Shown here in pieces: positions 4,614 through 58,264 of a stretch of 58,887 nucleotides of DNA (positions are counted from its first letter, which is position 1; the number at the start of each line of letters is the position of its first letter). The notes under the pieces were generated by a model. That model was given only the letters and a program-made list of their open reading frames with translations. It was not told where the DNA came from and did no database searches. The translations under genes and the position numbers were made by a program. The DNA comes from Heterodontus francisci (taxonomy: Eukaryota), in contig NC_090379.1 of the NCBI RefSeq assembly GCF_036365525.1, positions 45,373,923-45,432,809 on the forward strand, in the 5' to 3' direction.

Positions 4614-4784
4614 ATGGAATATTTGATTAGATATTTTTGCAGAAGTCTGAAAATCCCAAGCAATGATTGTGCGGTCTGCTGAGTCTCTGCTGACAGCATC
4701 TGTGCTGGTAAGAAATTCTTTTCCACCCGGAAGAAAAAGAATGTCGAGTGTTTGTTGTACTCCAGCACTGTATTCATTCACTAC
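4614..4784 (-). CDS. WDR25: WDR25 internal coding exon (171 nt; human exon 5 equivalent)
   Basis: Acceptor ttattccag|GTA, donor CAT|gtaagc. Translates [57 protein letters not shown] (contained in ORF 4566..4781). The QQTLDILF...[24 protein letters not shown] segment is diagnostic of WDR25. Confidence 0.97.
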
Positions 4785-6226
4785 CTGGAATAAAATAGTA
4801 AATACAATTTACAGGCCATATCAAAGACATTTATTTCCCCTCACCCCAGAAACAAGGAGCATTTTGATAAACTATTTTTCCTTTGCTAATTGATCAGAAT
4901 TTTTGAAATGCATGTTTCCCACATTGGGAGCAGTACAATTTTTTTTAAATGCACTAATGGGATATAGGCATCACTAGCCAAGTCAGCATTTATTGCCTGT
5001 CCCTCATTGCCTTTGAAAAAGTTTTGCTGAGTTGCATTCATGAACCACTGCAGTTGACATGGTAAAGTTACTCTCACACTACTATCAGGGAGGGAGTTCC
5101 AAGATTTTGACCCAGCAACAATGAAGGAATGGCAATATATTTCCTAAGTCGGGATGGTGTGTTACCTGGATGTGAACATGGAGGTACTGGTGTTTGTATG
5201 CACCTGCTGCCCTTGTCTTTCTAGGTCATGGATTTCAAATATGCTGTTGAAGAAGCCTTGGCGAGTTGCTGTAATGCATCATGTGGATGCTACACAATGT
5301 AGCCAGGATGTGCCAACGTTTCAGGTGGTGGACGGGATGCTGATCAAGCGGGTTGCTTTGTCCTGGATGGTGTTAAGCTTCTTGAGTGCTGTTGGAGCTC
5401 TACTCATCCATTACGCTCCTGACTTGTGCTTTGTAAATAGTGGAAAGGCTTTGAGGAGTCAGGAAGTGAGTCACATGCCACAGAATACCCACCTCTGACC
5501 TGCTCTTGTAGCCACAGTATTCATGTGGCTGGTCCAGTTAAGTTTCTGGTCAATGCTGACCCCCCAAGATGTTGATGATGGAGGATTTGACGATGGTAAT
5601 GCCATTGAATGTCAAGGAGTGATGTTGGAAATAATCACTGCCCAGCACATGTGTGGTGAGAATGTTAATTGTCACTTATCAGCCCAAGCTGAATGTCGAT
5701 GCACGTGGATATGGACTGCTTCATTATGAGGAGTTGCGAATAGAACCGAACACTGTGCAATCATCAGCAAACATCCCCAACTTCTGACCTTATGATGGAG
5801 CGAAGGTCATTGATGATGCTGATAAAAAAGGGTGGGGTAGGACACCACCATGAAGAACTCCTGCAGCAATATTCTGGGACTGAGATGGCTAGCTTCTAAC
5901 AACCACAAGCTAGGTACGATTCCAGCCAGTGGAGAGCTTTCCCCCTATTCCTATTGTCTTCAATTTTATAAGGGCTCCTTGAAGCCACACATGATCAAAT
6001 GCTGCCTTGATGTCAAGGGCAGTCATTCTCACCTTACCTCTGGAATTTAGCTCCTTCCAAATTTGAACCAAGGCTATAATGACATCTGGAGCCGAGTGGT
6101 CTTGGTGGCACAAACGGAGCATCGGTGAGCAAGTGCCGGATGATAGCACTGTCAACAACACCTTCCCTCATTTTGCTAATGTTTGAGAGTAGGCTGATGG
6201 GGGCAGTAATTGGCCGAATTGGATTT

Positions 6227-7804
6227 CGTAATAAAAGCAAAATACTGCGGATGCTAGAAATCTGAAATGAAAACAAGAAATGCTGGAAATACTCAGCAGG
6301 TCTGGCAGCATCTGTGGACAGAGAAGCAGAATTGATGTTTAAGGTCAGTGACCCTTCTTCAGAACTGGCAAATATTAGAAATGTGAAAGGTTTAAGCAAG
6401 TGAAGCAGCGGTGGGGCAAGAGATAACAAAGGAGAAGATATAGATAGGACAAGGCCACAGAGAATAACCGACATTAGTACAGATAGGGTGTTAACGGACT
6501 GAAAACTGAACAGCCGCAAGTACAAACATGAAAAAAAAAGTGGGTAAGCAAACTGAACAAACTAAGATGAAATAAAATAAAACAAACAAAAAAATATATA
6601 AAAAAGAAAAAAATAACTAAAAAAAAAATAAAATGGGGGGGACCCGTCAAGCTCTGAAATTATTGAACTCAATGTTCAGTCCGGCAGGCTGTAGTGTGCC
6701 TAATCGGTAACTGAGATGCTGTTCCTTGAGCTTGCGTTGATGTTCACTGGAACACTGCAGCAATCCCAGGACAGAGCTGTGAGCATGAGAGCAGGGAGGA
6801 GTGTTGAAATGGCAAGCAACCGGAAGCTCGGAGTCATGCTTTCAGACTGAGTGGAGGTGTTCTGCAAAGTGGTCACCCAGTCTGCGTTTGGTCTCTCCAA
6901 TGTAGAGGAGACCACATTGTGAGCAGCGAATACAGTATACTACATTGAAAGAAGTACAAGTAAATCGCTGCTTCACCTGAAAGGAGTGTTTGGGGCCTGG
7001 GATAGTGAGGAGAGAGGAGGTATATGGGCAGGTATTACACCTCCTGCGAATGGAGGGGAAGGTGCCGAGGTGGTGGGGGTAATGGAGGAGTGGACCAGGG
7101 TGTCGCGAAGGGAACAATCCCTTTGGAATGCTGACAGGGGAAGGGAGGGGAAGATGCATTTGGTAGTGGCATTACGCTGGAGGTGGCGGAAAATGATCCT
7201 TTGGATATGGAGGCTGATGGGGTGGAAAGTGAGGACATGGGGAACCCTGTCGCGGTTCTGGGAGGGAGGGGAAGGGGTGAGGGCAGAGTTGCGGGAAATG
7301 GGCCGGACACGGTTGAGGGCCCTGCCAACCACAATGGGGGGGTGGGGGGTGGGGGTGGAATCCTCGGTTGAGGGAAAAGGAAGACATATCAGAAGCGCTG
7401 TCGTGGAAGGTAGCACAGAGCAGATGTGTCGGAGACAGAGAAACTGGGAGAATGGAATGGAGTCCTTACAGGAGGCAGTGTGTGAAGAAGTGTAGTCAAG
7501 GTAGCCATGGGAGTCGGGCTTATAATGGATATTAGTAGACAGCCTATCCCCAGAGATGGAGACAGAGAAGTCGAGGAAGGGAAGAGAAGTGTTGATGGAC
7601 CATGTAAAGGTGAGAGAAGGGTGGAAATTAGAAGCAAAGTTGATAAAGTTTTCCAGTTCGGGGCAGGAGCAGGAAACGGCACCGATAGAGTCATCAATGT
7701 ACCGGAAAAAGAGTTGGGGGAGGGGACCCGAGTAGGACTGGAACAAGGAATGTTCGACATATCCCACAAAAAGACAGGCATAACTAGGACCTATGCAGGT
7801 ACCC
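6227..7804 (-). mobile_element. 5'-truncated Penelope-like element (RT + GIY-YIG endonuclease + 3' pLTR)
   Basis: RT: MGTCIGPSYACLFVG..FFRYIDD..LPFLDFSV. GIY-YIG with the CCHH motif: RFTCTSFNVVYCIRCSQCGLLYIGETKRRLGDHFAEHL. Frameshifted. Flanked by a 9-bp direct repeat attggattt (6218-6226, 7805-7813). Confidence 0.93.
6327..6368 (-). ncRNA. Degenerate minimal hammerhead ribozyme motif in the Penelope pLTR
   Basis: Minus strand reads ccagtt CTGAAGA a gggtcactgacc ttaaacatc aattctg. The CUGANGA box and stem II are intact, but the GAAA box is mutated relative to the copy at 27664-27706. Confidence 0.6.
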
Positions 7805-10732
7805 ATTGGATTTTGTAATGCTTGTTGTGGACTGGTATAGCACAGGTTTGGAACACAGTTCTCATTAACAAGTGCAGCATGCCCCAGGGACAGTGCTTTA
7901 CACACAGGACATACTTGGGAAATTATCCACTTTGTTGTCCTTGTTGTAGCTGTACTGGAACAGTTTAGTTAGAGGTGCGTTTAGTTCTGGAGCACAAGTC
8001 TTCAGCATTGCAGCCAGGATGTTGTTGGGACCCACAGCCTTTGCTGTATCCAGTGCATACAGCCATGTTTTGATATCACAAGAGTGAATGGAATAGGCTG
8101 AAGACTGGCTTCAGTGATGCTTCGGACCTCAGGAGTCGGCTGAGATAGATCATCCACTTGGCACTTCTGCCTGAAGATGATTGCAAACACTTCAGCCATG
8201 TCTTTTGCACTCACATGCTCGGCTGCACCATCATTGAGGATGGGGATGTTCACAGAGCCTCCTCCCCTCGAGTTAGTTGTTTAATTATCCATCACTGTTC
8301 ACAGCAGAACTGCAGGGCTTTGATCTGATCCATTGGTTGTGAGATCGTTTAGCTCTTGATATGGCATGGCTGCTTCTGCTGTTTAGCAGGCATGCAGTCC
8401 TGTATTTTAGCTTGACCAGGTTGGGATCTCACCTGGTGCTGCTCCTGGCATTCTCCCCTACACTCCTCAATGAACCAGGGTTGGTTCCCTGGCTTGATGG
8501 CAATGTTAGAGTGAGGAAAATGCCAGGTCATGAGGTTGCAAATTCTCAGGGAATACAATTCTGCTGCTGCTGATAGCCCACAGTACCTCATGGATGCCCA
8601 GTTCTGAACTGCCAGATGTGTTCTCAATCTTTCCTATTTAACATAGCGCTAGTGCCACACAAGATGGAAGTTATCCTCAGTGTGAGAACAGGACTTTGTC
8701 TCCACAAGGACTGGGCGGTGGTCATTCCCACTTTGGCGTAGTGGTTTGATACAGTTATGGATAGATATAACTGGGAAAGTAGATTGGTGAGTCAGAGGTC
8801 AAGTAGATTTTCCCTCGTGCTGGTTCTCTCACCACCTGCCACAAGCCCAGTCTGGGAGCTAGGTCTTTCAGGAGTCGGTCAGCTTGGTCAGGAACGATAC
8901 TATGGGGCCACTCTGGGCAATGGGCTTTGAGGTCCCCACCCAGAGTACATGCTGTGCTCGCTGCTTCTCCAAGTGGTGCGCAACCTGAAGCAGTACTGAT
9001 TCATCAGCTGAGGGAGGACGGTTGAGGGTGGTAACCAACAGGAGGTTTCCTTGCCTATGTTTGACCAGATGCCTTAAGACTTCAGGGGGTCCAAAATCAA
9101 TGTTAAGGACAAATCCTCACAACTGTATACCACCGAGCTGCCACCTCTGGTGGGTCTGTCCTGCTGGTGGGACAGGACATACCCAAAGATGGTGATGGAA
9201 GAGTCTGGGACATTGTTGAAAGGTATGTTTCTACGAGTGTGGCTATGTCAGAATGATGCTTGACTAGTTTGTGGGATACCTTTCCCAATTTTGGCATAAG
9301 TCTCCAGATGTTAGTGAGGAGGACTTTGCAGGGTTAACTGATCTGGGTGTACCTTTGTCGTGCCCAAATCCAATGGCAGGATCAATGCCATGTGATCCGT
9401 CCTGTTTTATTCTCAACAAACTTTGTCGTAGTGGTTTGGTACAACTGAGTGCCTGCAAGGCCATTTCAGTGGACAGTTAAGAGTTAACCACATGACTGTG
9501 ATCACATTGGGTAAGGATGGCAGATTTCCTTCCCTAAAGGGTATTAGTGAACCAGATGTTATTTTTTGAACAATCCAGTAGTTACATGACAACTGATACT
9601 CGCTTTTTATTCCAGATTTATTTAAGTAACTGAATTTAAATTCATTGCCATGGTGGAATTTGAACTCATGCCTCTGGATCATTACTCCAGGACTCTGGAT
9701 TACTAATCCAGTAAGGTAACTATTTTGCATTACTAGTCCAGCAGCATAACCACTATGCTACCATTCCCTCTGAGAAAGTTTATAGATTGAGGGTGACATT
9801 AATGGACTTTAGTAGCCTCTGAAGACTTCCACTTAGTAGCAAAGTTGATAAGTTTTGTCACATATTAGGAGGGGACCTGAAACTTGAATTTTGAGGCTGC
9901 ACCATATTTCCACTGCAATTTCAGGGAGCCACTAGGAACTTGGCTCGTATAATACGGTGCAGACACTAGATCATGGATGCCTTGTTTGTCAGGGCCAATC
10001 CATACATTGTCTTCTGAATGTTTGCTAGGGAGCAGCAAGCATGTGCCCTTGAATCTTACATTTTGTGTGCCCAAAATGCAAGGTGTAATAGAATGAACTT
10101 ATGTAAGCATATGTGCTCCCACAGAGAGGAGTGGCCCTTACAGGAATAAAAAAAAATGCATTTGTCCATTAAGGTCAAGCAAATGTGATTATATAGGTGA
10201 ATGACAGGTTCCATCAGACAATCAACCATTCCACCTGTGTTTGAAGAAGCAAGAGCTCTGCAGTTTCACAAAGTCAGGACCTGATCTGCCCAACAAATTG
10301 TGAACTGAGAAGCTTTTTATACTGAATTGTGCTAGATGGAAAGTTGATGGTGGAAAATTAACATTCTAATATATCTATGGTATAAATACATTAAATATAG
10401 ATTAGAGATGCAAAGTAACTTGTACTATTTATTAAATTCAACTTACATTAAAATGTCTTTATGTAAGCTTCCCACCACTTGTAAAACCTTGTGTGTAGTC
10501 TTGTGCAAGCTACAATTCAACAGGTCAAGGCATATTTAGTGAACCCTTTTAAACATTCCTGGAAGAAGGCGTGTTTTACATTGCAAGTACTATTCTCTCA
10601 CTTCCTAAGATGAAGTTTCCTTGAATTTAGCCAAAATAACATTTTAAAATAAATATTTAAGTGCATCATTTACCTACTTCCCTGAAGTGCCTTAAGTTTA
10701 ACCACATGGCATTTAACTTTTAAGGAAGAGCA

Positions 10733-10893
10733 TTTTTTAAAAATTCATTCATGGAAATGTGGGCATCGTTGGCAAGGCCTGCATTTTTTACCCATCCCTA
10801 ATTGCCCTGGAGTAGGTGGTGGTGAGCTGCCTTCTTGAATCAATGCAGCCCTTGTGATGTAGGTACAGCCACAGTGCTGTTAGGTTGGGAATT
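10733..10893 (-). mobile_element. Family A LINE 3' tail fragment
   Basis: ttcattcatgg..gggcatcgttggcaaggcctgcattt..cccatccctaattgcc, matching the 3' end at 28261. Confidence 0.85.
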
Positions 10894-13347: not shown

Positions 13348-13856
13348 CTGTATTAACAAAAATGCGACTTTATTAAGAGCAAATTAAAAACTTAAAAAGT
13401 CCTCTGTGGTTTAATATTCCAGTTTAATCATCTTGAAAACACAAGAATAACAAAGCTGAATATTTATGTTAATGAGAAGATTTTATTGCATTTGTGGCTG
13501 ATTTCACAGGTAACTACACCACGTTACATGGTACTGAACAAAACAGTTTGCTACGGCTTTAGATTTGGTTCTGTTTTGCAGTGATTTAACTAATCTTAAC
13601 AGGGTAGAGGAGTTTTCTTTATTTTCTTGGGATGTAGGTGTCGCTGGCAAGGTCAGCATTTTATTGCCCATCCCGAATTGCCCTAGAGAAGCTGGCGGTC
13701 AGCCACCTTCTTGAACCGCTGCAGTCCACGTGGTGTTGGTACACGCACAGTGCTGTTAAGAAGGGAGTTCCAGGATTTTGACCCAGCAACAGTGAAGGAA
13801 GGGTGAAGATGCTGTCGAAGGAGCCTTGGTGAGTTGCTGCAGTGCATCTTGTAGAT

Positions 13857-15113
13857 CAGGGTTGTCCAACCTTTTCGGGCAGAGAGCTGCATTGCGATTT
13901 TTGGTTGGCCCAAGGGGCCGGTGAGTAAATTTCGAAAGATAAAGGCATTAAAAATTTATCTTACTAATAAAAACAACAAAAATGTGCATTTTTGTGAAGA
14001 AGCTTTAAATGCGAAAACTAATTTATTGACTTACTTCCTCGTCACTATCTTGAAAATTGATTTAGTGACATACCTGGCATTGTTTTTGCTTTAATTAGTC
14101 AATCTCTGCCCAAAAACTTGATGTAGCGATGCAGAGTATTCTGGGCAGATGTCCACTTTTCAGGAGAGACCATGATCTCTCTTCCCCCTCTCCCTGCGCT
14201 GTGTGTGTGTACGTCTCGTTCTCTCTTCCATCCCCATCCCCTCTAGGACTAGGGGACACAGATTGAAAGTTCTGTGCAAAAGACGCAGGGGGAATATAAG
14301 GAAATACTTTTTATTTTTACGCAGTGGGCGGTAATGACCTGGAACTAGCTGCCCACAAGGGCGGTGGAGGTGGAAGTGGAGATGATCAATGACTGCATGA
14401 GGGAGTTCGATGGCCAAAGAGAGAAACAGACTTGCAAGGCTACGGGGATTGAGCCAGGGAGTGGGACCGACTGCATAGCTCCGTGGAGAGCTGGCACGGG
14501 CTTGATGGACAGAATGGCCATAAGTAAATGACTCTTTGACTCTCTCTCCCCTTCTCTGTCTGTCTCCCTTCCCCCCCCTCTCTGTCCCTCTCCACCCATC
14601 CCCCTCCTGTCTGTATCTCTCCCCACCCCCCCCCATGTCTCCAGTGTTCCCCACTCTCTGTCCCCCCTTCTCACTGTCTTTTGCACCTCGCCCCTTTCTC
14701 CCTCTCTGCCCCCCCCCCCTCTGCTTTGTCTCTCCCCCTCTTCCACCACTCATTCTCTCACAGTTGCAAAGTTCTTTTAAAAATGATCGTTGTCAGTTTC
14801 AGAGGTGACAGCTGCTGACATAGGGAACAGCATTTTCCCAACAAATTCGGGGTTTTCCGGCAGACTTCATTAAAAAAAAATGTCAGAACATGCCGGAAAA
14901 CCCCCGAGTCTGTTGGGAAGCGGCTGTTCCCGACATCAGTGGTTATCACCTGCGAAACTGACAGTGCAATAGTTTAAAAGTCAGACTGACAACGGGAAAT
15001 TTCTCATCTCCAGTCAGGGTGAGGATGAGGAACGGCCCCAGGAACAGTTAACATCCACAGGCCGGATGGAAACTGCATGATCCTGGCCCGTGGGCCAAAG
15101 GTGGACGACCCTG
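13857..15113 (-). mobile_element. Internally deleted hAT (Charlie/Buster/SPIN-like) DNA transposon
   Basis: TIRs cagggttgtccaaccttt / aaaggtggacgaccctg and a perfect 8-bp TSD ttgtagat (13849-13856, 15114-15121). Minus-strand remnant of a transposase C-terminus (HLPRILCIATSS..KQKQCQVCH*) at ~14062-14157. Carries a CR1 3' fragment (~14240-14525), a pyrimidine-rich tract and a long hairpin. Confidence 0.9.
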
Positions 15114-15354
15114 TTGTAGATGGTACACGCTGCTGCCACTGTGCACGGTGGTGAAGGGAGTGAGTGTTGAAGGTGGTGGATGGGGTACCAATCAAGCAGG
15201 CTGCTTTGTCCTGGATGGTGTCAAGTTCTTTGAGAGTTGTTGGAGCTGCACCCATCCAGGCAAGTGGAGAATATTCCATCACACTCCTAACTTCTGTCTT
15301 GTAGATGATGGACAGGCATTGGGGAGTCAGGAGGTGAGTTAGTCGCTTCAGAAT

Positions 15355-15706
15355 TTTTAGTTTAGTTTAGAGATACAGCACTGAAACAGGCCCTTCGGCC
15401 CACCAAGTCTGTGCCGACCATCAACCACCCATTTACACTAATCCTACACTAATTCCATATTCCTACCACATCCCACCTGTCCCTATATTTCCCTACCACC
15501 TACCTATACTAGGGGCAATTTATAATGGCCAATTTACCTATCAACCAGCAAGTCTTTGGCATGTGGGAGGAAACCGGAGCACCCGGAGGAAGCCCACGCA
15601 GACACAGGGAGAACTTGTAAACTCCACACAGGCCGTACCCAGAATTGAACCCGGGTCGCTGGAGCGGTGAGAATGCGGTGCTAACCACTGCGCCACTGTG
15701 CCGCCC
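15355..15706 (-). mobile_element. HE1-like V-SINE, full length
   Basis: Complete head to (ctaaa)n tail. Inserted into the family A LINE; gaatt occurs on both sides. Confidence 0.93.
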
Positions 15707-17124
15707 TGTGAATTCCCAGCATCTGACCTGCTCTTGTAGCCACAGCATTTACATGGCTGGTCCAATTCAGTTTTTGGTCAATGGTAACCTCGAGGATGTT
15801 GATAGTGGGGGATTCAGTGATGGTAATGCCATTGAACATCAAGGGAAGATGGTTAAATTCTCTCTTGTTGGAGATAGTCATTGCCTGGCACTTGTGTGGT
15901 GTGAATGTTACTTGTCACTTATCAGCCCAAGCCTGGATATTGTCCAGGTCTTGCTGCATATGGACATGGGCTGCTTCAGTATCTGAGAAGTCACAAATGG
16001 TGCTGAACATTGCACAATCAGCAGCGAACATCCACATTTCTGACCTTACGATTGAAGGAAAGTCATTGATGAAGCAGTTGAAGATAATTGGGCTTCGGAC
16101 ACTACCCTGAGGAACTCCTGCACTGATGTCCTGGGACACTTGATTGACCTTCAACAACCACAACCATCTTCCTTTGGTTGACTCCAACCAGCGGAGAGTT
16201 TTCCCCCCGATTCCCATTAACTTCAGTTTTGCTAGGGCTCCTTGGTCAAATACTGCCTTGATGTCAAGGGAAGTCACTCTCATATCACCTCTGAAGTTCA
16301 GCTCTTTTGTCCATGTTTGGACCAAGACTGTTATGAGGTCAGGAGCTAAGTGGCCCTGGCAGAACCCAAACTGAGCATCAGTGAGCAGGTTACTGCTGAG
16401 CAGGTGTCACTTGATAGCACTGTCGACGACCCCTTCCATCATTTTCCTGATGATCAAGCATAGACTAATAGGGCGGTAATTGGCCGTGTTGGACTTGGCC
16501 TGCTTTTTGTGTGCAGGACATACCTGGGCAATTTTCCACATTGCCGGGTAGATGCCAGCGTTGTAGCTATACTGGAGCAGCTTGACTAGGGGCGCAGCTA
16601 GGTCTGGAGCACAGGTCTTCAGTACTATTGCCGGAATATTGTCAGGACCCATAGCCTTTGTAGTATCCAATGCCTTCAGTCATCTTGATATCACACGGAG
16701 TGAATCGGATTGGCTGAAGACTGGCATGTGATGCTGGGGATCTCGGGAGGAGGCCGAGTTGGATCATCCACTTGGCAGTTCTGGATGAAGATCATTGCAA
16801 ATGCTTCACCCTTTTCTTTTGCACTGATGTGCTGGGCTCCCCCATCATTGAAGGTAAGGATATTTGTGGAGACACCTCCTCCGGTTGGTTGTTTAATTGT
16901 CCACCAACATTCACGATGGGTGGCAGGAATGCAGAGCTTAGATCTGATTCCACTGGTTGTGGAATCGCTTAGCCCTGTCCATTGCATGCTGCTTCCACTG
17001 TTTGGCATGCAAGTAGTCCTGCGTTGTAGCCTCACCAGGCTGACACCTCATTTTTGGATATGCCTGGTGTTGCTCCCGGCATGCCCTCCTGCACTCTTCA
17101 CTGAACTGATCTAATTGATGCACT

Positions 17125-22435: not shown

Positions 22436-23185
22436 TTTTTAAAAATTCTTTCATGGGATGTGGACTTCACTGGCAAGTCCAGCATTTGTTGCCCATCCCT
22501 AATGGCCCTTGAGCTCAGCAGCTTGCAAGGTTATTTCAGAGGGCAGTTAAGAGTCTGTGGGTCTAGAGTCACATGTAGGTCAGACATGTAAAGACAGCAG
22601 ATTTTCTTCCCTAAAAGGACATTAGTTAACCAGATGGTTCAAATCCCACCACGACAACTGATGGTAGTTTCATGGCACCATTACTGAGACTAGGGTTCAA
22701 TTCCAGATTTTTCAGAGTCATACAGAGATACAGCACTGAAATAGGCCCTTCAGCCCACCTAGTCTGTGCCGACCATCAACCATCCATTTATACTAATCCT
22801 ACATTAATCGCATATTCCCTACCACATCCCCACCTTCCCTCAATTCTCCTATCACCTACCTACACTAGGGGCAATTTACAATGGCCAATTTACCTATCAA
22901 CCTGCAAGTCTTTGGCTGGGGAGGAAACCGGAGCACCTGGCGGAAACCCACACGGTCACAGGGAGAACTTGCAAACTCCGCACAGGCAGTACCCAGAACC
23001 AAACCCGGGTCGCTGGAGCTGTGAGGCTGTGGTGCTAACCACTGTGCCGCCTAATTAATGTTATTAATTAATTGAACTTAAATTCTACCAGTTGCCGTGG
23101 TGGGATTTGAACCTGTGTCCCCAGGGCATTGCCCGGGCCTCTGGATTACCAATCCAGTGACATTACCACTACGACATCATCTCCC
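22436..23185 (-). mobile_element. tRNA-headed SINE sharing both its 5' region and its 3' tail with the family A LINE
   Basis: Head gggagatgatgtcgtagtggtaatgtcactggattggtaatccagaggcc..ggttcaaatcccacca (A and B boxes), body homologous to 9440-9650, tail aagggccattagggatgggcaacaaatgctgg..cccatgaaagaat. Interrupted by an HE1-like SINE. Confidence 0.85.
22724..23051 (-). mobile_element. HE1-like V-SINE
   Basis: Near full-length match to the other copies. ORF 22672..23058 is its antisense translation. Confidence 0.92.
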
Positions 23186-23879
23186 CCATAAATTTCAACC
23201 ACAGCAATGGTAAAGGATCTACATTTGGTTTCAACAGCCCCAGATTAGGAAGGGGAGAAACTGGTCACTGTGCAGCTACTGCTACTGAGGGTTGGATGTT
23301 GATGTCAGGTGAAAACAACAACAGACTCCTGTGACACCTGCTGTGTTCAGATAGCCAGATCTTAGCTATCGTCAACACTCACATGATGAGCAGCGGCTTT
23401 GTGTGTGAGCTACTTGAGAGTGCCTATGGAAATGTACCCCAGAAAGGAGTGGAGTGGACTAAATTGGCAAAGAGAAAAAATGTATCCTTAGGCTAATATT
23501 ATCCAGTAATATCAGTGGCACCCATAATCTGTAGCACTGTTCATACAAAATTAATTACTGACATTGAAGTACAATAATTTTATATTACAATGTCAATAAT
23601 GAAATTAGTTATTACTAAAATATATAATGTTGACACAATGCATCTTGAACACTGTTTTACAACCTGGTCCAGCATTGCTTGAGTGAAAGTTTAACACCAC
23701 TGTTCTGACAAATTTCTCCTTTTTGTTCGACAGGCAGGTGTGCGGCGTGCACATGTCCAACATGCATAAATGTAGAAGCATGTGAAAATCATCACTTGAA
23801 TGTCCTCGCACTACAAATGGTAACAAAGTCCACAGTGGCTTTCATAGACCCAAAACTTTAGCTGAGGGGATGGTATAAC

Positions 23880-24312
23880 TTCTGGCTATTGATCAGGAAC
23901 TCATCCACCAACTTCAACATTCACTCCCTCCACCACCACGCACAGTGGCAGCAGTGTGTACCATCTACAAGATGCAGTGCAGCAACTCAACATCCCTCCA
24001 ACAGCACCTTCCAAACCCGCGACCTCTACCACTTAGGAGGACAAGGGCAACAGACGCATGGCAACACCACCACCTGCAAGTTCCCCTCCAAGCCACACAC
24101 CATCCTGTCTTGAAAATATGTTGCAGTTCCTACACTGTCACCAGATCATCATCCTAGAACTCCCTCCCTAACACTGTGGGTGTACCCACATCAGATGGAC
24201 TGCAGTGGTTCAAGGCGGCAACTCACCACCACCATCTCAAGGGCAATTATCGATGGGCAACAATTGCTGGCCTTGCCAGCAATGCCCACATCTTATGAAA
24301 CAAATTAAAAGA
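23880..24312 (+). mobile_element. Family A LINE 3' fragment
   Basis: FNIHSLHHH..AAVCTIYKMQCSN peptide and the tail gggcaattatcgatgggcaacaattgctggccttgccagcaatgcccacatc. Confidence 0.88.
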
Positions 24313-25904
24313 AAATTGTTGCAGCACGAAACCGGTTTCGGTCTCAGACATGTAATAAATTCCAGCTGATGGACTCTTCCTAAATTGAATAAGTTTTTCA
24401 GGAAAAAAATTACCAATATTCACTGTTCTTAATACAGCTGAATGAAATGCATATGGTAGCTCTTCACCTTCAATGCTATTAATGAAATCCATGCAAGTGC
24501 TATAATCTATTTCTCAGACATTTAATTATTTTACTACTTGGGAGACGAGAAAAATTATCTGCGCTTTTATTATTAAACTCAAATGCTCCAGTAAGTTGCT
24601 ATCCTTTAATTATGTAGACATGCTGTTTTCTGTATGGTAACATTATTCAAATACCAAATTAAGGATGTGCTGTTTCCAATGTGACCTCAATGCAGCGTAG
24701 TCAAGTCTGTTAAACTGGCTTCCACGCACAATAGGTCTGATCTTTCGGTCACTAACTAGTTTTCCTCTTGGTTGGAAGCTTTCTTGATTCTCTCAGCTAT
24801 AAATCATTCTATCCTGCTACCTACCGATTCAAAAAACTGTACAATGGTTAAAAGATTAGTTCCTACACTTGAAAATATGGTTGATCTAAGCATCCATGAT
24901 CAGGCAAGAAAAACTGTGCTTTGTAAATTATGGAAAATAGTAACCACAATGTTAAAGTGGATAAAGTACCACATGGCAAGGTACTGAGCCACTTCAAAGG
25001 AGTCCCAGGTTTGATCCAAGATCTGTGCTGAAGCACTGTATCTCAGCGGAAAGAGATATGAAGGCATCATAATTGGCTTTAGTGCCCCTGGGATAAGGAA
25101 CGTAAACAAAAGTCAGCCACATTATTCACTCCTGACTGCTTTCAGTAAATCATGCTGGAAAGTGCGCTTGTGCCCATCACTCAGAGACATGAATGATCTC
25201 AGTTGAAAACATTAACTATTCATTGATGCCAAATAGACCCTACAGTATAAATGGCAGACACTCGCAGCAAGGGTCATATTATTGAGACAATTCCAAAGGA
25301 AAGGGCTCTCTAATATAAACTGCGTTTTAACCAAAATTAGAAACTTCTTCATACTTAAGACTCAAATGCCGTATGGAGCAGAGTGCTACCCAGTGCAATA
25401 AAAATCAGATCAGTTGAAACATTCTAAAGCGATTTGAATCACTTCTCGGTTTGCAAATAGAGGGGGCTGGTTCTGAGAAAGGAAATTCATGAAGATTCAA
25501 GTGGTTAGGCTGAACAACCTATTCTCATTCCTCCATTCTTATAAACAATGCATTGTTCCATTATCTACAGGCATCTACCTTTCTTCTTGGCATTCTCCTT
25601 TAATACTTGCCAAATAACCAGGACTTCATTTCCAAATAATGTTACAGATCATGATGAATAATGCATTTAAATTTTATTCAATTGTAATGAATCTTCTGAG
25701 GCATGGTGAATAGTAAGCCAGATGATATATTGTTTTATTAAGAGTGTAATGCTGTATAATGCACAAAGCATTATTCTGCTTATAAGGTACGTTCATATCT
25801 CTTTTAAAGGCCATACAGTCTTACTGTTGTTAAATAAAGAGAGACTCAGGTCGATCTGAATTTAATTGCAAATTGGAAAATGCTTGCAAATTTCAGGATC
25901 AGAA

Positions 25905-27572: not shown

Positions 27573-27803
27573 AAAAACAAGAAATGCTGGAACCACTCAG
27601 CAGGTCTAGCAGCATCTGTGGAAAGAGAAGCAGAGTTAACGTTTTGAGTCAGTGACCCTTCTTCGGAGTTCCGAAGAAGGGTCACTGACCCGAAACGTTA
27701 GCTCTGCTTCTCTTTCCACAGATGCTGCCAGACCTGCTGAGTGGTTCCAGCATTTCTTGTTCTTATTTCAGATTTCCAGCATCCGCAGTATTTTTCTTTT
27801 ATT
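27573..27803. mobile_element. Palindromic non-coding Penelope-derived mini-element
   Basis: 95-bp inverted arms (27573-27667 / 27670-27764, about 5 mismatches) plus a 39-bp extension, homologous to the pLTR at 6230-6368. Perfect 14-bp TSD caagatgttgatac (27559-27572, 27804-27817). Confidence 0.92.
27664..27706 (+). ncRNA. Minimal type-I hammerhead ribozyme motif (PLE-type)
   Basis: Stem I CGGAGUU/AGCUCUG; core CCGAAGA (U4C variant) plus an extra A; stem II GGGUC-ACU-GACCC; GAAA box; palindromic ACGU stem III. Predicted cleavage after GUU at 27699. Confidence 0.72.
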
Positions 27804-28260: not shown

Positions 28261-30484
28261 TTTTTTTATTCATTCATGGGATGTGGGCGTCACTGGCTAG
28301 GCCAGCATTTATTGCCCATCCCTAATTGCCCTCTAGAGGGTGGTGATGAGCTGCCTTCTTGAACCGCTGCAGTCCATGTGGGGTAGGTACACCCACAGTG
28401 CTATTAGGAAGGCAGTTCCAGCATTTTGACCCAGCGACAGTGAAGGAACGGTGATATAGTTCCAAGACAGGATGCTGTGTGGCTTGGATGGGAACTTGTA
28501 GGTGTTCCCAAGTATTTGCTGCCCTTGTCCTTCTAGGTGGTAGAGGTCACGGGTTTGGAAGGGGCTGTCGAAGGAGCCCTGGGCGTGTTGCTGCAGTGCA
28601 TCTTGTAGATGGTACACACTGCTGCCACTGTGTGTCGATGGTGGAGGGAGTGAATGTTTGTGGATGGGGTGCCAATCAAGCAGGCTTTGTTTTGGATAGT
28701 GTCGAGCTTCTTGAGTGTTGTTGGAGCTGCGCCCATCAGGCAAGTGGATGGTATTCCATCACACTGCTGACTTCTGCTTTGTAGGTGGTGGACAGGCTTT
28801 GGGGAGTCAGGTGGTGAGTTACTTGCCACAGGATTCCTAGCCTCTGACCTGCTGTTGTATTTATATGGCTACTCCAGTTCAGTTTCTGGTCAATGGTAAT
28901 CCCAGGATGTTGATAGTGGGGGATTCAGCAATGGTAATGCCATTGAATGTCAAGGGGAGATGGTTAGATTCTCTCTTGTTGGAGATGGTCATTGCCTGGC
29001 ACTTGTGTGGCGCAAATGTTACTTGCCACTTATCAGCCCAAGCCTGGATATTGTCCAGGTCTTGCTGCATTTCTACACAGACTACTTCAGTATCTGAGGA
29101 GTCACGAATGGTGCTGAACGTTGTGCAATTATCAGCGAACATCCACATTTCTGACCTTATGATTGAAGGAAGGTCAATGATGAAGCAGCTGTAGATGGTT
29201 GGGCTTAGGACAATACTCTGAGGAACTCCTGCAGTGATGTCCTGGCGTTCAGATGATTGACCTCCAACAACTACAACCATCTTCCTTTGTGCTAGGTATG
29301 ACTCCAACCAGCTGAAAGTTTTCCCCCTAATTCCCATTGACTCCAGTTTTGCTAGGGCTCCTTGATGCCATACTCAGTCAAATGCTGCCTTGATGTCAAG
29401 GGCTGTCACTCTCACCTCATCTCGAGTTCAGCTCTTTTGTCCATGCTTGAACCAAGGCTGTTATGAGGTCAGGAGCTGAGTGGCCCTAGCAGAACCCAAA
29501 CTGAGCGTCACTGAGCAGGTTATTGCTAAGCAAGTGCTGCATGATTAGATTAGATTAGATTAGAGATACAGCACTGAAACAGGCCCTTCGGCCCACCGAG
29601 TCTGTGCCAAACATCAACCACCCATTTATACTAATCCTGCACTAATCCCATATTCCTACCAAACATCCCCACCTGTCCCTATATTCCCCTACCACCTACC
29701 TATACTAGTGACAATTTATAATGGCCAATTTACCTATCAACCTGCAAGTCTTTTGGCTTGTGGGAGGAAACCGGAGCACCCGGAGAAAACCCACGCAGAC
29801 ACAGGGAGAACTTGCAAACTCCACACAGGCAGTACCCGGAATCGAACCCGGGTCCCTGGAGCTATGAGGCTGCAGTGCTAACCACTGCGCCACTGTGCCG
29901 CCCATGATGGCACTGTTGATGACACCTTCCATCATTTTACTGATGATTAAGAGGAGACTGCTGGGGCGGTAATTGGCCGGGTTGGACTTGTCCTGCTTTT
30001 TGTGTACAGGACATACTTGGGCAATTTTCCACATTGCCAGGTAGATGCCAGTGTTGTAGCTGTACTGGAACAGCTGGCTAGGTGCAGCAAGTTCTGGAGC
30101 ACAGGTCTTTAGTACTATTGCCGGAATATTGTCAGGGCCTATAGCCTTTGCAGTATCCAGTGCCTTCAGTCGTTTCTTGATATCATGTGGAATGAATCGA
30201 ATTGGCTGAAGTCTGGCATCTGTGATGCTGGGGACTTCAGGAGGAGGCCAAGATGGATCATCAACTCGGTACTTCTGGCTGAAGGTTGTTGCAAATGCTT
30301 CTGCCTTATCTTTCTGTGGGTCTAGAGTCATATGTAGGTCCAGACCACGTAATCTACCATTAGTGAAGCAGATGGGTTCCAAATTTATTGAGTTCAAATT
30401 CCACCTTCTGCTGTGGTGGGATTCGAACCCATGTCCCCAGAGCAATTCCCTGGGTCTCTGGATATAATACGGCACCGACTCCCC
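28261..30484 (-). mobile_element. Family A LINE, internally deleted copy (tRNA head joined to the RT half)
   Basis: Well-preserved RT ORFs 29705..30535, 28879..29337 (GVPQSIVLSPTIYSCFIIDL..MFADNC) and 28533..28829. Intact 3' tail at 28261. Head/body remnant at ~30314-30484 with B-box gggttcgaatcccacca. Confidence 0.9.
29543..29903 (-). mobile_element. HE1-like V-SINE, young full-length copy
   Basis: (ctaat)n tail; catgat repeated at both junctions (29540-29545, 29903-29908). Confidence 0.95.
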
Positions 30485-34240: not shown

Positions 34241-35479
34241 AATATCTTTTAGGACTTCATTAATAAAAAAATCATAATGACATATTCAACAGTACTATGA
34301 AGTGATGAGTGGTGTAAAACAATAAACTAGTGCTGCAGCAAGTGTGCCTCATCTACAGTACCTTGGCCTTTGGTCCCACTGGGCTACTATGTACTCTCAT
34401 TACAAAAATTAATAGACAGGATTTGTGGTCAAACACTGGTAATCTAGCTATACAGATGCCTGCACTTCAATTCTTACATACTGTTTGGAGAAAGAAAAAT
34501 CTTTGGTTACACAGGGTTATAATCGTATTTGCAATTTAAGAAATCTGGTGCATTCCAGACAGATACAATATTTGTTCTTTTAGCAGCCAGATGCTTCTCT
34601 GCAGGTTCTTTATAATCCATCATTTGGCATTCTAACCAGAGTAACTTCAGCTTCAGTCATTCACACAGGAGGACACATTTCGTTTGTCTCATGAATATCT
34701 ACAGTAACGTAATTTTCCACATCATAGCTTTTTGTGGAATACTGTACAGCATTACCTCAATCAAAATTAGAACATTACGGCTGTCTAGTTTTTCTTTGAG
34801 AATCAGTGATGAAAAACCTTGTTACTTGGCAATGGAACCACCACATCTGAACTCAATTCCAAATGTAGCATTCCTGGGTTCAGCTCTTTGCAGTTTAAAG
34901 CTCAGTCAACACACTTTTAAACACATCCTGGGCACAAATCATATTTTTGTTTAAATTAAAACATCACAAATTACCTTATTCATTTCTTGGCAAAAGGGGA
35001 AAGCATTTACAGAATTTCCATATTATTTAGTTTGCTACAGTCTGTGCTTGTGAGTGTGTGCATGCATGGGGGAGTGAAAGGAGAGCAAAGGTCCATGTGA
35101 AATCTACTTGTGCATGGCCAGTTCCCTGGCAGTCTTGTGGTAGTAACTGTGGTAGACCTACAGCCCCAGAATAGAAGTTATACATGCATTACTTGCCCTG
35201 GCACCAACCTGTCCAATGCGATTTTGATCAAGACTAAGAATAGGTCTTCTTCAAGGGAAAAACCAAAGGCATAATTGCATGAGTCAGAACCAATGTGGCT
35301 CTTTATTTCCAAATCAGAAAATTGCTGCTCAATCATTCTAGAGGGCCATCCTTTCTCTTGCTCCATCGTAAACTCATTCACTGTACCTCCAACATCCATT
35401 TCCTTTAACTTACTGATTTAAAAAAATTATGCCCCATAGAAAAAAAGTTATGAATTATATTGGACTACATCAACCGCAG

Positions 35480-35955
35480 AATTGATATAGTAGTAATGTA
35501 CTGGTCATGTTACCGGCCTAATCATCCAAAGACCTGGACTAATAATTCAGAAAATTTGAGCTCAAATCCCACCTTGACAGTTTCAAAATTTGAATTTAGT
35601 TTGAAGAAAATATGGCAATATAAAACTGATATCAGTAAGAACAGTTGTTCAATTGCTACAAAATCCAACTGGTTATCTAATGTCCTTTAGAGAGGTAAAT
35701 CTGTTGACATTATCTGGTCTGGCTTATACGTGACCAGTCCCACACCAATGTGGATGACTCTTAACTTCCCTCTGTAGCATCATAGCGAGTCACTTAGTTC
35801 TGTCAAACTGCTACATTGTGGTAGCTTCTTCACCATATGGACTGCAGCAGTCAAGAAGGCAGCTCACCATCACCACCTTCTCAGGGAAATTAGAGATGGG
35901 CAATAAATGTCAGCCTCATCAGCGATGCGCACATCCCAAGAACGAATATTTAAAA
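35480..35955 (+). mobile_element. Old tRNA-headed family A derivative with a longer LINE 3' segment
   Basis: Degenerate head (gagctcaaatcccacc), body (ctggttatctaatgtcctttagagaggtaaatctg..gactcttaacttccctctg), ~20 nt of LINE-specific 5' sequence, then ~130 nt of LINE 3' end (ggactgcagcagtcaagaaggcagctcacc..gatgggcaataaatg). Confidence 0.8.
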
Positions 35956-37900
35956 TTTAAAGCTGAGTTCCAGCACATCCCCACATATATTGCAGAAAGC
36001 TGATAAACTAAATTGGAAATGCTGCCTGGAGTATTAAGAAAAATTTACCATTATAACACTGAAAACAATGAATAATTTCCTGTGAGACAAGATAGCTGCC
36101 AGAATGTCATAAAGAGGAAATTATGGACAGCATTACTATAACTGATGAGGCACTTCTTCCCTACAATGGCATTTAGACCTGCTTTAGCCAACAGCCACAC
36201 TAATTAGGCCATGAAACAATGGCATAAAAGCTGATTAATGATGTGACATTTTAAGGAAATTAAGTCTTTTGGACTTCAACGTTAACAACATGTCTGACCT
36301 TTATTATATGAAAATAAAATGCAAAGCATTATTCACTGGTTATGTTCACCGAATAACTGATTATCCCAGACAATAATTTACATTTGCAGCTCTTCTTAAG
36401 ACAATTAAAAGGCTTGGTATTTTTATGCCATTGTACTAAACAAAACCATTGTCACTGGTTGCAGAACAATCTATTTTAAGCAAAAAACATGCTATACATG
36501 GATGAAAGAAATTTCACAACTGAAAAGTACTGCAGCATTCACCACCGCCCCCCAAAAAAAATTTCCATTGTCATTAAGATGCAAAAAAAAAAGCACTTAA
36601 TACAGCATCATAATGTTGTATTCTTATATTTGGTAAGATGCTGCCAGACTACTAATTTTTGCATTACCATGCTCACGCAAGTATGTGGTTTCATCTGTTT
36701 ATATCTTGTAATTTATGCATTTATGACCCTAATATCAAAATGCTTCAGTTCAGTTAATAATAAGAAAATTCACTATGCAGATTGTTTAAGCTCTCCTTTG
36801 GATAATTATATCTTGCCAAGATATTAAATATTAACAAGGTTGCAAATCATTAAAACCTAGGAAGCAGAATCAGTCAGCAAACTACTGTCCATGAAATATT
36901 GCTCTATTCTGCAAGTGGGCAGAAATAAAATCCTTATTCCTTACCATTTTTTGTCTGAATATACCTCTGTTAAGCACCTTGAAACATTTCTTTCTTTATT
37001 AAAGGTGCTATATAAATGCAAGTTGTTACTGCTACCATCTTCACTAAATAATGCTGGAAGTAATGTAGACACAGATTGATTCTCTGCTTCATATTTTTGT
37101 TTAAGTCCTCTGAGGGAGGAAAGAAGAGGACTTTGTAAAGTTATTTTCTACCTCCTGCCCCAAGTATTTTGTTTTGAAGAAATAGATCATTTGCTCGTTT
37201 ACTAGCAGAAGAAATTGCTGTTTTTTTAAATCACTAACTGGTGCAAACCAACCATGTTGGATCTCTTAACCAGCAGAACAGAACTCTACTGGTGTAAGCA
37301 GTGGGTCTGGCAATGAGACAAGCACTGTGATTCTTCGTCACTGTATTTAATTACTTTATTTTAAAACTTTCTCCACTATATATTATTAAGATTTAGTATT
37401 TAGATAAAATAGAATTACATTGTCATGGCACTTCAATGCAAAACTCATTTGTTTTGAAAAATTAAATTTTCAGCTAGAAGAATATTTTTCAGGAATGTAT
37501 TAGGTTAGCTGTCCTTTCTGCTCTCAGATCTGGGTTTGAATCTAGTCTAAAATGATGGCATAAAAGTCTCCTCTGAAGGCAATTTTAAAAAATAAAGTCA
37601 AACGAAATAAACTTGACTATTTGAAAATAATTTGTAGCACCCGTTCAGTTATCTTCCCATAAAGTTTGATCAAAAGTTTTCCTTATTTGCCAAAGCTATA
37701 CCAGAGACTAATTTAATTTAGTCAATCCTTCAAAGTGGATAGAGCCAGTGGAATTTATACTGCTCTCTAAAAATGTACTTTACATTAGCTTACTAGAGTT
37801 CTGGAAACCCATAGTACACTATAGTTACCTCCACTGCTACAGTAGTGTTCTGTTCTTGCAGAGATGAACTAATAAGCAAAGAGATAAAGAATTAATTGAC

Positions 37901-46018: not shown

Positions 46019-46416
46019 GCAAGGAACAATCTAAAGTAGAAATTCTAAATTGGAAGTGGGCTAACTTCAATGGGATGAGAAGAGATCCAACCAGGGCAAA
46101 ATGGAACCAAAGACTGACTAGAAAAACTGTAATAAAGCAATTGGTGATCTTTAAGGAGGGGATGTTTCAAATAGAGGCTAGGTACATTCGAACAAGGGTG
46201 AAAGGCAAGTGAATCAACCTCAGGACTCCTTGGATAATTAGGGAGATAGAGAATATGAAACAAAAAAAAGATGGTGTATGATGCACGCCTGGTGAATTCT
46301 CCAAGCAAAAGCCAGGCCAAATACAATAAGTTGAGAGGGAAAGTGAAGAGGAAAATAAGACTGGCAAAGAATATGAGAACAGAATGGCAGTTAACAAAAA
46401 AGGAAGCCAGAAATTT

Positions 46417-46516
46417 GAGTTCTAACAAAAGGCCACAGACCTGCAAAGTTAACTCTATTTCTCTCTCCACAGATGCTGCCAGATCCGCTGGGTATTTCCA
46501 GCACTTTGTTTTTATT
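46417..46516 (+). mobile_element. Degenerate Penelope pLTR / hammerhead fragment
   Basis: gagttctaacaaaaggccacagacctgcaaagttaactct..ctctccacagatgctgccagatccgctg aligns with 27665-27765. Both catalytic boxes are mutated. Confidence 0.75.
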
Positions 46517-58050: not shown

Positions 58051-58264
58051 CAAAGTTAGAAATAGCTGGAAACACTCAGGTCAGGCAACATCTGTGGATA
58101 AAACAGACAAAACAATGTGAATATGGCTCCTTCCTCAAAACTGAGTCCTGAAAAAGGATCTGTACTCAAAATGTGTTGTCTGTTCTCTCCATAGATGCTG
58201 TCTGACCTGGTAAATGTTTAGAGCTTTCTGTTTCAGATTTTCAGCACATGCAGTATTTTGCTTT
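58051..58264. mobile_element. Older palindromic Penelope-derived mini-element
   Basis: Same layout as 27573-27803 (gctggaaacactcaggtcaggcaacatctgtgga .. tccatagatgctgtctgacctgg .. ttcagattttcagcacatgcagtattttgcttt) but much more diverged. Confidence 0.75.

Follow-up and report, generated by a model that had tools for sequence, protein, structure and literature searches.

Introduction

Can a long interspersed nuclear element (LINE) that encodes its own protein also carry, at its own 5' end, the transfer RNA (tRNA)-derived promoter of RNA polymerase III (Pol III)? LINEs are held to need RNA polymerase II (Pol II) for translation, and short interspersed nuclear elements (SINEs) are held to be non-coding since they are driven by Pol III (Kojima, 2018; PMC5786205). 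The question is raised by a 58,887-nucleotide (nt) stretch of Heterodontus francisci DNA (assembly GCF_036365525.1, contig NC_090379.1, positions 45,373,923 to 45,432,809 of the forward strand; hereafter the window), which holds on the minus strand of positions 4939-9768 a LINE with a tRNA-like head (copy 1). Judged by its sequence, this element is a decayed copy of Zenon, a known elasmobranch LINE of the CR1 group. We show that the coding strand of the family avoids runs of four T, and we argue that the head belongs to the family and probably drives its transcription.

Results

On the minus strand, copy 1 runs from its first base at 9768 to a run of eight A at 4946-4939. It opens with the tRNA-like head (9645-9768), which has an A box at 9760-9750, a B box at 9666-9652 and an internal duplication of about 29 nt. 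A conserved body of about 200 nt (9443-9644) follows as the 5' untranslated region (UTR); it is common to the short copies described below, and its opening segment folds back to pair with the B box. A 115-nt linker (9328-9442) leads into a single broken open reading frame (ORF), and a short 3' UTR with the poly(A) tail (4939-5005), common to all short copies, closes the element; A-runs terminate copy 2 as well. The 5' part of the ORF, located by tblastn, holds the APE endonuclease, a tether and the start of the reverse transcriptase (RT) (7904-9327). The 3' part holds the RT core and the C-terminal region (5006-6226), and Pfam RVT_1 was recognized on the matching part of copy 2 (E 2e-15). Between the two lies a Penelope-like insertion foreign to the element (6227-7903). 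The APE N-terminus from 9327 aligns to residue 13 of P0002, an APE-RT protein of 967 amino acids (tblastn, E 0.006), and a later APE stretch aligns at E 4e-08; Pfam did not find the endonuclease on the broken 5' frames of copy 1. Without the insertion the element measures 3,153 nt, and the 441 nt between its first base and the APE hold no long ORF beyond a chance frame of 114 amino acids across head and body. An earlier note, made from the sequence alone, had proposed this minus-strand anatomy and a size of about 3.2 kb with no space for ORF1, and motif searches, tblastn and the position of the poly(A) bear it out on both points. Site-specific insertion of a LINE into a SINE was ruled out because no second tail follows the poly(A).

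Stuart et al. (2026; PMC13343379) describe Zenon from elasmobranchs, coelacanth and hagfish, always with a poly(A) end and never with ORF1. The supplement of that paper holds seven elasmobranch consensuses from five species (CarCar, HypSab, RhiTyp, ScyCan and SquAca_Zenon-1/2/3; 2,886-3,314 nt), built outward from RT seeds, and the paper lists copies with an intact ORF at 3 of 612 in a ray and 1 of 1,419 in the whale shark. These elements and copy 1, whose length falls within the consensus range, differ in nothing of kind: they lack ORF1, encode APE-RT, end in poly(A), measure 2.9-3.3 kb and have the same first 400 nt by eye. Within those 400 nt, all seven elasmobranch consensuses start with the head, each within a few bases of its first base, and continue through the same body and linker; copy 1 is co-linear with them by eye, not by alignment, and the SquAca heads are the closest. 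The A and B boxes are retained in the consensuses of four shark species. In the three coelacanth and hagfish consensuses, also compared by eye over the first 400 nt, the head is not at the start. In a tree restricted to rows with at least 230 aligned residues, and in which a dense protein cluster was represented by only 8 members, copies 2 and 3 fell within a clade of 25 of the 106 rows (support 0.994), apart from the other LINE of the window and with no row named Zenon.

Because all seven consensuses, from five species, begin with it, the head evidently belongs to the autonomous family and is not a chance fusion; head, body, linker and single APE-RT ORF evidently make up one unit of 3.2-3.3 kb in sharks and a ray. 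The claim of the earlier note that the autonomous element itself bears the head is therefore upheld, and by a nearly unbiased check, the consensuses having been grown from RT seeds. Its finding that the element lacks ORF1 is correct and not new, since this is a universal Zenon trait already described (Stuart et al., 2026). The family and its head-bearing sequences are likewise published; the head and the depletion of T runs reported below are undescribed in that paper. Neither "tRNA" nor "polymerase III" occurs in its main text, "tRNA" does not occur in its searchable supplement, and neither term was found in its preprint. No paper came up in literature searches for a LINE driven by Pol III or for Zenon together with tRNA; Repbase, Dfam, the Zenodo files and subscription journals lay outside their scope and may describe it.

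An opposed reading is that a SINE landed upstream of single LINE copies or template-switched onto them, as in U6-L1, or that consensus extension ran into stray SINEs. Template-switch chimeras of the U6-L1 type have one-off junctions, with the head absent from the family consensus; that type was ruled out, the head standing in seven of seven consensuses in the same order of head, body and linker. Extension into stray SINEs was controlled for with eight exact B-box strings: across at least 909 CR1-group consensuses, each read over its first 400 nt, they matched only six of the seven elasmobranch Zenons, the ray consensus being the seventh. The window itself speaks on both sides. The junction of copy 2 differs from that of copy 1, and of the four copies with a head, just one is flanked directly on both sides by a candidate target duplication. 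On the other hand, the head has no SINE tail of its own, the beginning of the linker is present in short copy B, and the seven family copies of the window show no alternative 5' end. Chance fusion or artefact is thus largely refuted as far as the sequences tell, and we regard it as very improbable.

Of these seven copies four bear the head and three are 5'-truncated. Copy 2 (28262-30484, minus strand), with a candidate target duplication of 5-6 nt at both edges, consists of the head and half of the body joined to the post-APE ORF, RT and tail. The earlier note had taken it for a second, independent RT-bearing copy ending in the same head; it does carry the head, but mid-body is joined directly to the post-APE ORF and the head-linker-APE junction is not repeated, so that, being internally deleted, it is weaker evidence than had been supposed. 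Short copy A (22436-23187, minus strand) comprises head, body and the last ~75 nt of the element, with another SINE at about 23045-22715. Short copy B (35476-35957, plus strand) comprises head, body, the first ~15 nt of the linker and the last ~140 nt of the element; since it includes the linker start, it appears to derive from a template with head plus linker. The three shorter head-bearing copies therefore leave the 5' part at three points (mid-body, end of body and ~15 nt into the linker) and rejoin at three others (the post-APE ORF, the last ~75 nt and the last ~140 nt). No target duplications were found at the edges of copy 1 or of short copies A and B. The truncated copies are copy 3 (13615-17115, minus strand), which bears the RT and is split by two insertions, with its tail at 13856-13615; a 3' fragment at 23916-24319 on the plus strand; and a tail fragment at 10734-10893 on the minus strand. 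Copies 2 and 3 are 85% similar, and copy 1 is about 72% similar to either.

Other sequences have settled within these copies. A second tRNA-SINE family, which we take to be HE1, is inserted in three of the seven (29530-29895, 22715-23045 and 15360-15705), in the same orientation each time, with an ARAGORN match at 29827-29899. About 1.26 kb of other sequence, including a GA-rich stretch, lies between copy 3 and its tail (13856-15114).

Vertebrate Pol III stops where the coding strand has at least four consecutive T, and the scan of the sense strand for such runs (T4+) that the earlier note had proposed revealed a deficit. Across 7,143 nt of family sequence there are 4 T4+ runs, where dinucleotide shuffles predict 11.0 ± 2.7 (1 of 200 as low), and 37 runs of three or more T against 53.6 expected, whereas runs of four or more A number 34 against 32.6, so that the depletion is specific to T. 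Outside copy 1, the three other copies hold no T4+ run in 4,000 nt, and copies 3 and 2 are the two longest stretches without T4 anywhere in the window, whichever strand is read. With codons preserved, the other copies again hold none in 3,360 nt, against 4.5 (2 of 1,000) or 5.3 (0 of 1,000) expected under two nulls. Of the four T4+ runs in copy 1, two (5829 and 5020) do not occur in the other copies of the window, and a third (8520) is interrupted in run X1 at 5,717 of 5,950 depth units. No such avoidance marks the comparison sets. Eight other LINE fragments in the window hold 23 T4+ runs in 5,080 nt against 24.3 expected, and the codon-preserving test on other LINEs gave 54 against 55.2. A protein-guided scan gave 80 related loci, none with a DNA match to the family; in the 71 with a long ORF, 1,237 runs occur against 1,177 expected. 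L001, the sole member of the clade with DNA, holds 20 against 20.1 and has no tRNA call upstream. The other tRNA-SINE in the window served as a positive control, with one T4+ run over 1,038 nt. Runs of four T are thus avoided on the coding strand of the family.

This pattern bears on a reading that treats the head as a passenger, taken up a single time from a partner SINE, while Pol II transcribes from a promoter in the body or head and T runs are few because of base composition or avoidance of U-rich signals. Several facts would suit it. The family is T-poor (20-25% T), and two of 71 unrelated ORFs of similar T content also lack T4 (expected 2.0 and 1.4); these are L010 and L060, metagenome LINE ORFs outside the clade whose 5' ends are missing. 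The B box of the ray consensus is imperfect, and for lepidopteran Zenon, whose short derivative has no tRNA part, a 5' UTR promoter of the LINE type is assumed (Wang et al., 2019; PMC6740152). However, the depletion persists under dinucleotide and codon controls and spares A runs, the two boxes are kept in four shark species, and the consensuses start within a few bases of the first base of the head, all of which makes a passenger head unlikely in our judgement.

How far the head resembles a tRNA was examined separately. Its A-box-like motif alone is near chance (11 matches in the window against 5.5 expected). The B-box motif has 6 matches against 0.04 expected, all within family copies; the pattern was derived from those very copies, and the count therefore shows repetition, not function. 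The boxes stand at tRNA-like spacing in the family heads, widened in copy 1 by the duplication. In the Rfam alignment of the head, an anticodon arm and a T arm can be made out, with 25 nt inserted in the variable region. Of the tRNA-derived head described in the earlier note, then, the A and B box motifs are present, but tRNA identity is weak, with 14.4 bits in Rfam against a cut-off of 29 and no tRNA call by ARAGORN on the head of copy 1. The head may resemble tRNA-Gln. The relaxed ARAGORN calls in the 80 related loci look like noise and were set aside.

Alternatively, the head might act as RNA: as a tRNA mimic, cut by RNase P from host Pol II read-through transcripts, it would define the 5' end of the element as ribozymes do in RTE, R2 and Ingi. 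LINEs without ORF1 that yield internally deleted derivatives often have 5' ribozymes (Kojima, 2018), copies 1, 2 and 3 and short copy A lie in sense with the neighbouring host exon, and two hairpins of the head are kept, with two of nine predicted pairs altered on both sides. This proposal leaves the T-run depletion unexplained, though, and it is weakened because the B-box region, in three of the four heads folded, forms its pairs with an inverted copy downstream of it, not as T arm and acceptor stem, and gives no cloverleaf. No ribozyme family scored on copy 1, a weak point given how degraded that copy is. We consider a tRNA mimic quite improbable.

The segment directly after the head is an inverted B-box copy (30391-30429, 9630-9668 and 35559-35600), which gives a hairpin of 15-16 bp and makes the opposite strand match the B-box motif too. 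Short copy A has an inverted B-box region (96% over 25 nt) in place of about 25 nt of its body (22636-22660). The folding of linker and body showed nothing notable (z -1.4 and -0.7).

Beyond the window, contig sets from 4 of the 24 listed runs gave cover in all 30 bins for organisms A, D and E. Among the contig joints listed there, no piece bridges the body to the APE, and one joint at 9334-9428 (three contigs) has sides of 21-27 nt, too short to count. In run X13 (organism E) a contig with a depth of 1,850 joins early APE to late RT (5816-9171), its shorter side being 26 nt; it may be another amplified internally deleted form. A DNA pattern for the APE start had no match in the metagenome collection, and a search for database proteins spanning body to APE found none (0 of 18 candidates, with two irrelevant bacterial matches).

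Two further features adjoin or interrupt copy 1. The Penelope-like insertion (6227-7903, minus strand) has an RT-like open frame of 331 codons and a weak GIY-YIG match (Pfam E 0.0047, under the curated cut-off), and its end segment recurs at 27574-27803, 46413-46516 and 58058-58264. At 4614-4784 on the minus strand, 155 nt downstream of the copy 1 tail, lies a 57-codon exon with AG/GT ends, whose look-alikes are WD40 proteins including a WDR25-like cluster (recognition below the tool threshold); copy 1 sits in sense within the intron upstream of it.

Discussion

Taken together, these results lead us to favour, with due caution, the reading that Pol III transcribes the whole element from A and B boxes acquired in an elasmobranch ancestor. 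The Zenon ancestor in elasmobranchs would have gained a tRNA-derived type-2 promoter at its 5' end, plausibly from a deleted derivative that gained a tRNA head, as in the model of Kojima (2018), and returned it to the LINE via the shared 5' UTR, or perhaps by direct capture. TFIIIC would bind the internal A and B boxes, and Pol III would initiate at the head and read through to the tail, which it could do because terminators appear to have been selected out. Like other CR1-group elements, the family would have its full-length RNA copied by target-primed reverse transcription that begins at the 3' tail. Since the promoter would be copied along with the RNA, any internal deletion that kept head and tail would be a working SINE at once, and such ready-made SINEs would account for the three different short forms in the window.

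The least certain step is the source of the protein. Pol III can yield translatable RNA, and removal of terminators raised reporter output (PMC8223928), so the same RNA might be translated independently of a cap; alternatively, a minority of capped Pol II read-through transcripts might act in trans. An upstream frame in the linker of copy 1, open at 9476-9267, runs out of phase into the start of the APE, and six of the seven consensuses have an upstream AUG, which by eye seems in frame only in SquAca_Zenon-2, where the linker is shorter. A non-AUG start, a frameshift or reinitiation could open the ORF. We put forward only tentatively, and with more doubt than conviction, that the element is a natural protein-coding Pol III unit, whose uncapped 3.3-kb RNA would be both messenger and template, with a non-AUG start or a frameshift from the conserved upstream frame. 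Such a unit would have been kept since the split of sharks and rays and would yield a SINE-like family by internal deletion of the LINE.

A number of observations weigh against transcription of the whole element by Pol III. With regard to the promoter, Rfam scores the head of copy 1 as tRNA at E 7 and that of short copy A, the best short copy, at 14.9 bits and E 1.4 (4,227 families; cut-off 29), the B box of the ray consensus is one base short, and a report cited in PMC8223928 holds that Pol II can use Pol III promoters. With regard to terminators, all four T4+ runs of the family lie in the degraded copy 1, the one at 9096 being the fourth beside the three that are missing or broken elsewhere. 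The codon-preserving test on copy 1 alone gave 2 against 3.2 (349 of 1,000), no significant depletion, and an earlier codon test, with five family segments mis-binned, gave 2 against 5.2 (fraction 0.078). Runs of five or more T show no depletion (2 against 2.3 expected), a second copy in the window covers only 1,864 of the 3,153 positions, the APE region being single-copy, and the comparison with the published consensuses spans their first 400 nt. With regard to translation, no in-frame AUG before the APE was found in copy 1 or in the ray consensus, and in the latter an AUG about 80 nt before the APE opens the same out-of-phase frame as the one in copy 1.

If Pol III does transcribe the element, an abundant vertebrate LINE with A and B boxes and kilobases of coding sequence free of TTTT would break the division between Pol II LINEs and Pol III SINEs and would offer a natural test of whether an uncapped Pol III RNA can act as messenger. 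A SINE-like family arising by simple internal deletion of a LINE would be the reverse of the usual SINE route. A shark repeat of head, body and tail that is co-linear with both ends of its LINE also blurs the boundary between SINE and deleted LINE and bears on the open question of where SINE bodies originate. The full-length form lies outside the SINE2 description as short and non-coding, since it codes for APE-RT; only short copies A and B fit. Among possible body sources, bivalve Meta and Meta-Deu (by eye; PMC4824008) and UCON3 (PMC7245038) showed no resemblance to the family body and were rejected.

Among known systems, the tRNA-headed SINEs of cartilaginous fish that have a LINE tail in common with L2-2_CM, SacSINE1 and the CmiSINEs (Luchetti et al., 2017; PMC5499810), and the tRNA-headed MetaSINEs, which also have a LINE tail in common (PMC4824008), differ from the shark family in having the tail alone in common with their LINE. 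RTE-1_DAn and related elements are LINEs that contain a tRNA-like sequence and for that reason match many SINE2 families (Kojima, 2018); they are a possible precedent, although they belong to another clade and the description there is silent on position, on any promoter role and on terminators. Lepidopteran Zenon is, like the shark element, a single-ORF CR1-group element of about 3.3 kb, and it repeatedly yields Persaeus-like derivatives that join its own 5' end to the ORF end and 3' UTR (Wang et al., 2019). The short copies here likewise keep both ends of the parent LINE with the middle deleted, three copies having three breakpoints; however, Persaeus has neither tRNA homology nor a Pol III promoter, whereas the shark short forms carry A and B boxes, the B-box motif being present in all three shorter head-bearing copies, and therefore resemble SINEs. 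The bipartite SINEs, such as Bov-tA, AfroSINE and CoeSINE4, for which only RTE and Vingi were found as contributors, combine a tRNA head, a piece of LINE 5' UTR and a LINE tail as the shark short forms do (Kojima, 2018). In those SINEs the head sits on a deleted, non-coding derivative and the LINE is without it, whereas in the sharks the full-length coding element itself has the head.

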